Made by a program: the position numbers and the translations under genes. The notes beneath the pieces were generated by a model. The model was not told where the DNA came from, did not search any database, and saw only the letters and a program-made list of their open reading frames with translations. A stretch of DNA of 4,435 nucleotides from a virus (Duplodnaviria; Heunggongvirae; Uroviricota; Caudoviricetes): positions 1-4,435 of the IMG/VR virus record IMGVR_UViG_2548876863_000003; one strand, written 5' to 3'. Below are positions 875 through 4,384 of this stretch, piece by piece. How positions within the stretch are numbered: the stretch's first letter is position 1; each line of letters opens with the position of its first letter.

Positions 875-1090
875 ATGAGCAACCTACGAAAATATCGAGA
901 GTCACTGAATATCTCTCAAACAACACTTGCTAAGGCAGTTGGATGCACACAGGGAGCTATCGGACATTGGGAATCTGGTCGTCGCTTCCCAGACCTTAAA
1001 ACATGCCGTGCTCTTGTTGCGTGCCTAAACAAGTTAGGCGCAAAAGTCAGTCTTGATGACGTGTTCCCGCCGGAACACAAAGCCGCTTAA
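875..1090 (+). CDS. cro: Cro-like small HTH repressor (71 aa, XRE family)
   Basis: ATG at 875 with GGAGG 4 nt upstream; 71 codons; stop TAA 1088-1090. The HTH is ISQTTLAKAVGCTQGAIGHW, and its recognition helix (TQGAIGHW) closely matches that of the divergent repressor (TQGGIGHW), as expected for a repressor/Cro pair sharing operators. The protein ends in KAA. It is the 3' part of tracked ORF 704..1090, whose 5' extension overlaps the repressor start and is not credible. Confidence 0.85.
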   Translation: MSNLRKYRESLNISQTTLAKAVGCTQGAIGHWESGRRFPDLKTCRALVACLNKLGAKVSLDDVFPPEHKAA

Positions 1091-1254: not shown

Positions 1255-1528
1255 ACTATCACAGCGCGACGTTGATCGCGCAGAAACAGATTTACTCATC
1301 AACCTGTCAACGCTTACCCAGCGCGGTCTGGCAAAGATGATTGGCTGTCATGAATCGAAGATAAGCAGAACGGACTGGAGATTTATTGCTTCGGTCCTGT
1401 GTGCTTTCGGAATGGCATCAGACATCAGTCCGATTAGCAGGGCTTTTAAGTATGCGCTTGATGGACTCACCAATAAAAAACGCCCGGCGGCAACCGAGCG
1501 TTCTGAACAAATCCAGATGGATTTTTAA
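1232..1528 (+). CDS. cII: CII-like transcriptional activator (98 aa)
   Basis: ATG 1232; stop TAA 1526-1528. The C-terminus LTNKKRPAATERSEQIQMDF is essentially identical to the lambda CII C-terminus (ILTNKKRPAATERSEQIQMEF, from memory). The N-terminal 78 residues are diverged but of the same length and pattern (KISRTDW here versus QISRWKRDW in lambda). Confidence 0.9.
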   Translation: MEQTSYSKLSQRDVDRAETDLLINLSTLTQRGLAKMIGCHESKISRTDWRFIASVLCAFGMASDISPISRAFKYALDGLTNKKRPAATERSEQIQMDF

Positions 1529-1539
1529 CTGCTTTCTAT
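1474..1539 (-). ncRNA. oop: oop-like antisense RNA (about 66 nt) overlapping the cII 3' end, ending at a GC-hairpin plus U6 intrinsic terminator
   Basis: Plus-strand 1472-1524 (CAATAAAAAACGCCCGGCGGCAACCGAGCGTTCTGAACAAATCCAGATGGA) matches, as I recall it, the lambda sequence that encodes the 3' two-thirds of oop RNA. On the minus strand this gives ...CGCUCGGUUGCCGCCGGGCGUUUUUUAUU, a GC-rich hairpin plus U6 with the 3' end near 1474-1480. The predicted 5' end at about 1539 follows from the promoter at 1547-1555. Confidence 0.55.
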
Positions 1540-1546
1540 GGAGTTA

Positions 1547-1555
1547 ATTATGGCA
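1547..1555 (-). promoter_or_regulatory. pO-like extended -10 promoter (TGcCATAAT) for the oop-like RNA, overlapping the HNH gene start codon
   Basis: The minus strand reads TGCCATAAT (1555-1547), i.e. a TGn extension plus CATAAT hexamer. In lambda (from memory) the pO -10 is also CATAAT and also overlaps the start codon of the downstream rightward gene (O, ...TCATTATGACA...). Here the same hexamer overlaps the ATTATG of the HNH gene. Confidence 0.5.
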
Positions 1556-2361: not shown

Positions 2362-3249
2362 ATGGCACGTTCAAGAAATATCAAACCAGGCTTTTTCACC
2401 AATGATGAATTAGCTGAGTGTTCTCCATATGCCCGTCTCCTTTTTGCCGGGTTATGGACTATTGCTGACAAAGAAGGGCGGTTGGATGATCGCCCAAAGA
2501 AAATTAAAGCAATGGTACTGCCTTTCGATGATGTGGACTGCAATGATCTGCTTCAGCAACTTCACAGTCACAAATTCATCAACCGATATCAGGTAAATGG
2601 CGGCTCATATATCCAAATCAATAACTGGAAAAAGCACCAGAACCCTCACTGCAAAGAAGCTGCCAGTGAGATACCAGAACCAGTAGAGAACAATAACAGC
2701 ACCATGCAAGTACAGTGCAATGACGATAAAGGGGAAGAGAAGGAGGATGCAGAATCACTTCAAGTCATTGAAAACAATGAAGCACCAGAAAAGCACCATG
2801 CAAGTACAGTGCAAGAACAAGTTGAGAACAGTTTAAATCCTGCTGATTCCCTTAACCTGATTCCTGATTCCCTTAACCTGATTCCTGATTCCCTTTCTAA
2901 CACCCAAGCCGCTGACGCGACTTGTGAAGGGGGTGGGGCTGATGTCCATAAAATTTCAAGTCGCTATGCATTCGAAGGAAATATCGTTCGGTTAAACCAC
3001 AAGGATTACGAAGCATGGAAGCGCCTGTATCCGAACATTGACCTGAATTACGAGCTGGAAAGGCTGGATATCGAATTTAGCCATGAGAAGCCAAAGAACT
3101 GGTTTATCACTGCCAGCCAGAAACTCAGCTACCAGAACAAGCAGGCGTTATCCAGACCGGTACGCAAGGTTGCTAATGGACTTAAGGCTGAAAACTTTGC
3201 CACCAAGGATTACGGACAAACTGAAATGCCTTCATGGGCGCAGGAGTGA
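2362..3249 (+). CDS. Putative replication initiator (functional analogue of lambda O): conserved N-terminal domain, acidic low-complexity linker encoded by repeat DNA, C-terminal domain
   Basis: ATG 2362 with AGGTGG (2351-2356) 5 nt upstream; the tracked ORF starts at GTG 2353. Stop TGA 3247-3249. It lies immediately upstream of, and is translationally coupled to, the DnaC-like loader. The central region (about aa 95-200) is E/N/Q/D-rich low complexity and coincides with the DNA repeats at 2698-2901. The family assignment is not resolved from sequence alone; the protein is not lambda-O-like in sequence. Confidence 0.65.
   Translation: MARSRNIKPGFFTNDELAECSPYARLLFAGLWTIADKEGRLDDRPKKIKAMVLPFDDVDCNDLLQQLHSHKFINRYQVNGGSYIQINNWKKHQNPHCKEAASEIPEPVENNNSTMQVQCNDDKGEEKEDAESLQVIENNEAPEKHHASTVQEQVENSLNPADSLNLIPDSLNLIPDSLSNTQAADATCEGGGADVHKISSRYAFEGNIVRLNHKDYEAWKRLYPNIDLNYELERLDIEFSHEKPKNWFITASQKLSYQNKQALSRPVRKVANGLKAENFATKDYGQTEMPSWAQE
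2698..2720. repeat. Copy 1 of a 23-bp exact direct repeat AGCACCATGCAAGTACAGTGCAA
   Basis: Identical 23-mer at 2698-2720 and 2792-2814, offset by 94 bp (not a multiple of 3), so the two copies are translated in different frames (STMQVQC versus KHHASTVQ). The conservation is therefore at the DNA level. Confidence 0.8.
2792..2814. repeat. Copy 2 of the 23-bp exact direct repeat AGCACCATGCAAGTACAGTGCAA
   Basis: See copy 1; exact match read directly from the sequence. Confidence 0.8.
2843..2901. repeat. Tandem 21-bp repeats (CTGATTCCCTTAACCTGATTC x2 plus a partial third copy), an iteron-like array
   Basis: Units at 2843-2863 and 2864-2884 are identical; the third (2885-2901) diverges after CTGATTCCCTT. 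The core CTGATTC occurs five times (2843, 2857, 2864, 2878, 2885) with alternating 14 and 7 bp spacing. The array encodes DSLNLIP-DSLNLIP-DSLSN in the initiator linker. Confidence 0.8.
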
Positions 3250-3251
3250 AC

Positions 3252-4097
3252 ATGACGCTGGATGAAAAGATCTCCCAACTGGAGAAAAAACTTGCAGAAT
3301 TGAGTTCTCCGCCAATTGCTATCGAGCATACAGCTGTAGAAATTGGCTCTGGCATCTGTGAAAAACATGGTGAGTTTGAGCAGCGTAACCGTTACTCGAC
3401 TGGGCCAATTAAGTTTGCCTCAAGACCTAGCGAATGCCCGGAATGCATGAGAGATGAGCTTATTCGGCTACAGGCAGAGAAGATTAAAATCGACGAGGAA
3501 TCACGTAAGCGCAATGTCGAGTTTCTGTTGAATAATCTTGATATTCCTGAACGATTCAAGGGTTGCACACTGCAGAACTACGAGCCAGTCAACGACGATG
3601 CAAAGAGAGTGCTCAGGGTGTGTCAGGCATACGCCAGCAAATGGCCTGAGAGGTTACAGAAAGGCGGTGGGCTGGTTATGTGTGGAAAGCCTGGTACTGG
3701 AAAGAATCATCTTGCACTGGCTATCGCCCGGCACGCAATTACGGAACATCAAAGCTCAGCTATTTTCACAACGGCGCTGAAAATTGCCAGAGAATATAAA
3801 TCAACATGGTCGAAAAACTCCACCCGCACAGAGGATGAAGTGATCCGACAGTTCACTAAACCTGACCTGCTAATTATCGATGAGGTTGGTGTGCAGTTTG
3901 GAAGCGAGGCGGAAAAGATGATCATGTTCGAAATCATCAACACCCGCTACGAGCGCATGAAGCCAACAATCCTGATTAGCAACCAGAGCAAAGATGAACT
4001 GTCTGCATTCATTGGTGAGCGTGTTATTGACAGGATGAATGATGGCGGCGGATGCACCCTTGCGTTTACATGGGATAGTTACAGGAGCAGATCGTGA
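3252..4097 (+). CDS. DnaC/IstB-family AAA+ ATPase, putative replicative helicase loader
   Basis: ATG 3252 with AGGAG (3242-3246) 5 nt upstream; the tracked ATG 3234 lies inside the upstream gene. Walker A is GKPGTGKNHLALAI and Walker B is LLIIDEVG; the C-terminal region (ERVIDRM...SYR) is DnaC-like. The N-terminal region has a C-x2-H...C-x2-C cluster (CEKH...CPEC). Stop TGA 4095-4097. Confidence 0.9.
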   Translation: MTLDEKISQLEKKLAELSSPPIAIEHTAVEIGSGICEKHGEFEQRNRYSTGPIKFASRPSECPECMRDELIRLQAEKIKIDEESRKRNVEFLLNNLDIPERFKGCTLQNYEPVNDDAKRVLRVCQAYASKWPERLQKGGGLVMCGKPGTGKNHLALAIARHAITEHQSSAIFTTALKIAREYKSTWSKNSTRTEDEVIRQFTKPDLLIIDEVGVQFGSEAEKMIMFEIINTRYERMKPTILISNQSKDELSAFIGERVIDRMNDGGGCTLAFTWDSYRSRS

Positions 4098-4384
4098 CTG
4101 GAAAAGAAATCATCCTGGAATATCTGAAAACTCATGAACAATTCTCCCCACATGAATTAGCACTGATTACCGGAATACCAAATAACAGAATCGCTCAAGC
4201 AGCAAGGCATATGGTGAAACAAGGGCATTTGAGTGTTGTTGAGCGTAAGTGGAAGACGGTTATTTATGCAAAACGCAAAGTGAAGAAGGAGCCAATTAAA
4301 AGAAATCCAGATGGTACGGGGTGGGGATGTGCAAATCCAATGACGGCGTTTATTAATAGGGCGCTTATGGAGGTAAGGCAATGA
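4094..4384 (+). CDS. ren: Ren-like protein (96 aa)
   Basis: GTG 4094 overlaps the DnaC-like stop (GTGA), with AGGAG (4083-4087) 6 nt upstream. The N-terminus MTGKEIILEYLKTHEQF resembles lambda Ren (MTGKEAIIHYLGTHNSF, from memory); length (96 aa) and position directly after the helicase-loader gene match lambda ren. Stop TGA 4382-4384. Confidence 0.6.
   Translation: MTGKEIILEYLKTHEQFSPHELALITGIPNNRIAQAARHMVKQGHLSVVERKWKTVIYAKRKVKKEPIKRNPDGTGWGCANPMTAFINRALMEVRQ

Follow-up and report, generated by a model that had tools for sequence, protein, structure and literature searches.

The window, by which we mean the whole 4,435-nt stretch analyzed here, is a lambdoid immunity and replication region. 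Its cI-like, cro-like and cII-family genes are followed by an HNH-domain gene and then by genes for an O-like replication initiator, a DnaC/IstB-like loader and a small MarR/Ren-like protein, and a putative oop/pO/tO unit lies on the minus strand across the junction of cII and the HNH gene (Table 1). Positions 1400–1620 are 100% identical to the Stx1a-converting phage Stx1_121427 (LC645425), whose record is unannotated at the matching stretch. Among 5426 complete E. coli genomes, the oop segment is present in 1442 and the oop–HNH junction in 18. The start of the HNH gene was placed at 1550 because the upstream in-frame ATG at 1538 is not kept in orthologues, which have ACG, GCG or CAG at that position.

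Table 1. Genes and regulatory features of the window, with positions, strand and the basis of each assignment.
Feature	Position	Strand	Basis or remark
cI-like repressor gene	~104–760	minus	HTH and Peptidase_S24
cro-like gene	875–1090		
cII-family gene, oop antisense target	1232–1528	plus	Pfam Phage_CII, E 7.8e-35
tO intrinsic terminator	1472–1504	minus	terminator scan; identity with lambda tO
Predicted oop-like antisense RNA, ~66 nt	1474–1539	minus	ends by homology and lambda spacing
HNH Shine-Dalgarno GGAG	1540–1543	plus	sits in the pO −10 to +1 interval
pO extended −10, TGcCATAAT	1547–1555	minus	read from sequence; homologous to lambda TGtCATAAT
HNH-domain gene, 266 aa	1550–2350	plus	Pfam HNH, E 1e-13; PHROG 16986
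Weak −35-like hexamer TGGTCT	1570–1575	minus	3/6 match, 17-nt spacer, HNH codons 7–9
O-like replication initiator gene	2362–3249		
DnaC/IstB-like loader gene	3252–4097		
Small MarR/Ren-like gene	4094–4384		

Several further elements were recorded in the neighboring genes. A minus-strand TTGC-N6-TTGT motif (1241–1254), 9 nt inside cII, corresponds in offset to the 'putative lambda cII binding site' annotated in HK629 (L002, 1342–1355) and is likely a cII-dependent pRE-type promoter element. The terminator scan also returned a plus-strand hairpin of 9 pairs with a T-rich tail within the cII coding region (1372–1397), which may be a chance match; such hairpins are no commoner than in shuffles. 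Within the O-like gene there are 2.5 perfect tandem copies of a 21-nt repeat (CTGATTCCCTTAACCTGATTC, 2843–2895) and, in the 2678–2825 region, a 43-nt direct repeat (2678–2720 and 2772–2814, 81% identical); these repeats are probably origin iterons.

The 3′ end of cII closely follows lambda. Positions 1466–1521 are identical to lambda 38591–38646 at 56/56 nucleotides, the whole tO hairpin included, which bears out the sequence-only reading of a terminator-proximal part identical to that of lambda despite a different downstream gene. Where oop and cII overlap (1474–1528), the window agrees with lambda at 52 of 55 positions. The 3′ end of the predicted RNA was set by homology to lambda 38599 and its 5′ end by the lambda −10 to +1 spacing. 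From the cII stop to the next ATG there are 21 nt here versus 32 nt in lambda, which shortens the predicted RNA from 77 nt to about 66 nt. This RNA would be complementary to the final 52 nt of cII together with the stop codon, an overlap of 55 nt that equals that of lambda oop, and through its remaining part (1529–1539) to the cII–HNH spacer.

On the minus strand, the tO hairpin (1504–1477, 28 nt) consists of a 12-bp stem and a 4-nt loop; its U-run is U6 at 1480–1475, lying partly in the 3′ arm of the stem, and is followed by A1474, U1473 and U1472. The scan of lambda returns the identical 28-nt hairpin as tO. Among 8 lambda-tO-type variants, one stem position occurs as GC, UA, CG or AU and is paired in all of them, and these compensatory changes argue for selection at the RNA level. 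The predicted RNA folds into the terminator hairpin and a small hairpin (dG −22.3, z −3.2). The latter, the 5′ hairpin AAAUCC/GGAUUU, was rejected as a feature, as it is unsupported by the consensus fold of the same variants. An Rfam search of the window gave no oop match; this null carries no information, because Rfam holds no oop model and lambda's own oop, used as a control, is likewise unrecognised.

The promoter offsets of the unit also correspond to those of lambda. In lambda, the oop 5′ end is at 38,675 and the pO −10 lies 8–13 nt rightward, as ATTATG at 38,683–38,688 (PMC5869508), over the O start codon (38686), with the O Shine-Dalgarno AGGAG at 38676–38680. The corresponding offsets in the window are 1547–1552 for the −10, 1554–1555 for the TG, A1539 for the +1, 1540 for the beginning of the Shine-Dalgarno and 1550 for the ATG. 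The extended −10 reads ATTATGGCA on the plus strand and TGCCATAAT on the minus strand, with the hexamer at 1552–1547 and the TG at 1555–1554, and it overlaps the HNH start codon (1550–1552) and codon 2. In both phages, the +1 precedes the ATG by 11 nt and abuts the Shine-Dalgarno. The sequence-only reading had put this −10 over the HNH ATG and a transcript start near 1539; the former is confirmed in the sequence and is conserved across loci, and the latter matches the prediction from lambda's experimentally defined spacing. It had also taken the RNA 5′ end to be complementary to the HNH Shine-Dalgarno, which is not the case: with the +1 at 1539, the RNA lacks the complement of GGAG 1540–1543 and stops one base short of it, as lambda oop likewise does at the O Shine-Dalgarno, so that the HNH Shine-Dalgarno is covered only by promoter DNA between the −10 and the +1. 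Exact homology to lambda and comparative conservation support an oop homologue with its promoter on the downstream start codon, but not the idea that this arrangement is something extra relative to lambda, where O has the same geometry.

These offsets bear directly on whether the oop-like RNA also represses HNH translation by pairing with the ribosome-binding region, an extra role that would be new to this phage and that we consider improbable. The RNA–mRNA duplex would extend to 1539, which is one base away from the Shine-Dalgarno and 11 nt away from the AUG and presumably lies within the region contacted by the 30S subunit, and the spacer is just 21 nt compared with 32 in lambda; yet an RNA starting at 1539 has no complement of GGAG, the identical 11-nt geometry occurs with gene O in lambda, and the layout is common to seven types of downstream gene (see below). 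Moreover, lambda oop RNA is reported not to alter O–P mRNA stability, and several-fold more oop had little effect on the copy number of lambda plasmids, which replicate from ori-lambda; inactivation of pO, in turn, raises both a pR-driven reporter beyond pO and O protein, which was ascribed to promoter interference (PMC3985674). The two effects on HNH envisaged by the sequence-only reading, antisense pairing and promoter occlusion, had thus already been considered for lambda O, where interference is supported and antisense action is not.

In its −35, the putative promoter is closer to that of P22 than to that of lambda. Lambda TGtCATAAT has been validated by mutation (PMC5869508, PMC3349717, PMC3985674), and oop expression is lost when the −10 hexamer is changed from A to T at 38,683 or from ATTAT to CGCGC (PMC5869508, PMC3349717). 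In the window, TGGTCT is the candidate −35 of pO, and it is preceded on the minus strand by a T-run (A6 on the plus strand, 1579–1584). It is one base away from P22 pO, TGGTCA-17-TGgCATAAT, whereas the lambda −35 is TTGAGT. A consensus promoter scan of the window returned no promoter at pO, because the −35 matches at only three of the six positions; the same scan detects lambda pO (TTGAGT-17-CATAAT with an upstream TG) and P22 pO. The window pO was consequently judged by comparative conservation. In lambda, 45 nt of upstream sequence with the −10 and −35 are insufficient, and 94 nt reaching into O are required for effective oop expression (PMC5869508); this activating region, 45–94 nt upstream, has no counterpart here, its place being taken by unrelated HNH coding DNA.

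Considered by themselves, the poor −35, the negative scan and the missing O-gene sequence would suit a relic, in which the oop/tO sequence is kept only as the code for the CII C-terminus and as a recombination linker, while pO is too weak to yield a meaningful amount of RNA; the region is moreover known as a boundary of mosaicism, where a 33-bp linker of high homology is described (PMC3349717). We regard such a relic as very unlikely in view of the conservation of the promoter and terminator across loci. An invariant 22-mer of tO retrieved 120 IMG/VR loci; of these and the other loci compared, 105 had enough downstream sequence. In all 105 sampled loci, the minus strand reads CATAAT or TATAAT across the beginning of the gene that follows cII, and this gene is one of seven: lambda O, an orf48-like gene, a gp53-like gene, a 90-aa ORF, a 47-aa ORF, HNH or a 233-aa ORF. 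A TGn (TGT, TGC or TGG) stands directly upstream in every CATAAT class and is absent from both TATAAT classes. This coupling of TG with CATAAT, and of its lack with TATAAT, fits selection on promoter strength, which points away from a relic.

The HNH-linked loci extend this pattern. TGcCATAAT is kept in 16/16 HNH orthologues (85–100% amino acid identity), whose oop bodies and neighboring synonymous sites vary. All 16 lie directly after the end of a cII-type gene with a minus-strand terminator and retain GGAGT(T/A)AATTATGGCAAA. The oop bodies in the roughly 110 nt upstream of each HNH start (L127–L142) are of at least four types, including lambda tO, a TGTGCAAG-loop variant, a P22-like GGCCTC...GAGGCC form and others; nevertheless, each predicted RNA begins with a purine at the +1, eight bases past the −10, and ends in a GC hairpin with a U-run, a retention across unrelated bodies that a relic would not lead one to expect. 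The near-identical P22 promoter is expressed, and the compensatory changes in the terminator stem likewise speak against a relic. The join between the constant GGAGT(T/A)AATTATGGCAAA and the varied bodies looks like a recombination junction.

Given its occurrence in 105/105 loci and 16/16 HNH orthologues, the position of the putative −10 over the downstream start codon is, by these comparisons, beyond chance, and conservation of ATTATG could partly reflect a translation-initiation context or a role as a recombination linker. The context TTTTnnCC-TGGTnn-17-TGnCATAAT is common to the orf48, gp53 and HNH classes. A design of the junction specific to HNH was rejected, since the same overlap of −10 and ATG was found with seven downstream genes; as far as can be read from the sequences, placement of the predicted promoter on the following start codon is ancestral and general at the lambdoid cII–oop–replication junction. 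A more distant HNH homologue, 55% identical and carried by a different phage (L143), has a minus-strand terminator-like hairpin (AACCACCGCCCAACGGTGGTTTTTT) about 60–100 nt upstream, and the unit preceding it may be an analogous antisense unit.

Taken together, we assign a probability of roughly 80% to the reading that the window carries a canonical lambdoid tO–oop–pO unit in a short-leader variant; the oop/pO/tO unit here is real and very probably functional.

Between oop and the replication initiator gene lies a variable 'orf' slot, which the HNH gene fills here. The idea that HNH and the replication module are constant partners was rejected, as only 10 of the 80 relatives of the O-like gene (L187–L266) have HNH; in the others, the slot is taken by several different ORFs, which end at the initiator start or overlap it. 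The first 10–15 HNH codons (MAKKPTPDQVKKIR, 1550–1595) and those of the unrelated gp53-like and orf48-like ORFs have ATGnCAAAA...ACCAGGnnAAA in common, in matching positions, and the HNH stretch contains the pO −35 and the minus-strand T-run. Over the first 48 nt, HNH is 57–60% identical to the gp53 and orf48 ORFs, falling to about 40–45% further in. Shuffle tests of this similarity gave 22/2000 and 86/2000, and homology of the first codons was accordingly treated as suggestive only. The PHROG profile of this HNH family begins at residue 11. These observations suggest that the putative promoter module extends 35–45 nt into whichever ORF follows.

Beyond the different downstream gene and −35, the unit departs from lambda in its leader. 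The part of the predicted RNA beyond cII is 11 nt here versus 22 nt in lambda; lambda's long 5′ stem cannot form in the window RNA, where the 5′ arm of that stem is missing, and the small hairpin that might substitute for it is not conserved. The lambda LexA-like box CTGGATCTATCAACAG (L001, 863–878), reported as a LexA site within lambda oop-pO (PMC5869508), is without counterpart in window positions 1529–1546. Across loci, the corresponding CTG-N10-CAG pattern was found in 79/79 with a long spacer (32 nt) versus 0/46 with a short one (17–22 nt). Similarly, of the conserved 33-bp linker ACTGGATCaATCcACAGGAGTaATTATGaCAAA of the lambdoid junction (PMC3349717), the window has only the right half (GGAGTtAATTATGgCAAA). 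The missing linker half, LexA-like box and 5′ stem mark a subtype and do not exclude membership among oop units. Should stability or RNase III processing depend on the 5′ stem in lambda oop, those properties could differ here.

Besides lambda, two groups of known oop loci come close to this variant. The oop of P22, antisense to c1 and upstream of orf48, and the related OOP of BTP1 share its position and orientation, and there the transcript has been observed experimentally, by RNA-seq for P22 (PMC13397905) and in the prophage BTP1 transcriptome for the OOP homologue (PMC7067206). P22 also has a small or variable ORF between oop and the replication initiator, and its promoter is the near-identical one described above; however, its RNA body and terminator are unrelated to lambda tO, the downstream gene is orf48 (48 aa), and it retains a long leader (GATTGATCCAG) with the LexA-like motif region. 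The published P22 oop coordinates fit AF217253, and the NC_002371 numbering points to another region. Min27/phi24B-type Stx2 oop loci, on the other hand, share the short leader: their spacer is 22 nt (21 here), they have no LexA-like box, the leader is of a similar TTTTAAC... type, and tO is identical or a loop variant. They differ in having a consensus TATAAT, shifted by 2 nt and without the TG, and downstream ORFs of 47 or 90 aa. A literature search returned no transcripts and no measurements of expression, either for this phage or for any oop unit with a short leader, and, as regards mapped oop ends in Stx phages, nothing beyond statements that similar sequences exist.

From the homology, the terminator, the conserved −10 and TG and the geometry, we infer transcription in this phage, the ends of the RNA and its effects on cII and HNH in the following form. 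RNA polymerase would start leftward at about A1539 from the extended −10 TGcCATAAT (1555–1547), assisted by a weak P22-like −35, and would stop at the tO hairpin with a 3′ end near 1474, giving an RNA of about 66 nt. By homology with lambda, this RNA would pair with the final 55 nt of cII in the rightward pR transcript, and pairing would lead to RNase III-dependent decay, less CII and a shift in favor of lytic growth; RNase III-dependent cII decay is described for lambda oop in an account that cites Krinke and Wulff. The putative pO is oriented toward pR and overlies the point where translation of the next gene begins; its activity would therefore also be expected to lower pR transcription into HNH and the replication genes, through promoter interference as for lambda O. 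The parallel with lambda pO–pR interference (Olszewski et al. 2014, PMC3985674) lies in a leftward promoter on the 5′ end of the first post-cII gene, facing pR, and lower read-through into that gene is expected here too. The lambda effect was shown only for O and ori-lambda, whereas here the ori-like iterons at 2843–2895 are one gene further downstream, and any effect of pO on replication may differ accordingly from lambda.

A broader proposal is that short-leader oop, as in this phage, the HNH-linked loci and the Min27/phi24B-type loci, has lost the LexA box and 5′ stem of lambda and would hence be SOS-independent and perhaps differently processed in these Shiga-toxin phages, and that the pO module (about −45 to +1) is a portable junction that dictates the first 10–15 codons of the next gene, HNH among them. 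We put this forward tentatively and consider it rather unlikely as a whole.

It is probable that the Stx1a-converting phage and its relatives carry an oop gene that genome records leave unannotated. Beyond annotation, this finding matters little, with the LexA-box split as one modestly useful lead. The clean division into long-leader units with a LexA-like box and short-leader units lacking it could bear on how Stx phages tune CII in SOS induction, and, if the broader proposal is true, a short-leader oop would change how CII is shut off during Stx-phage induction.
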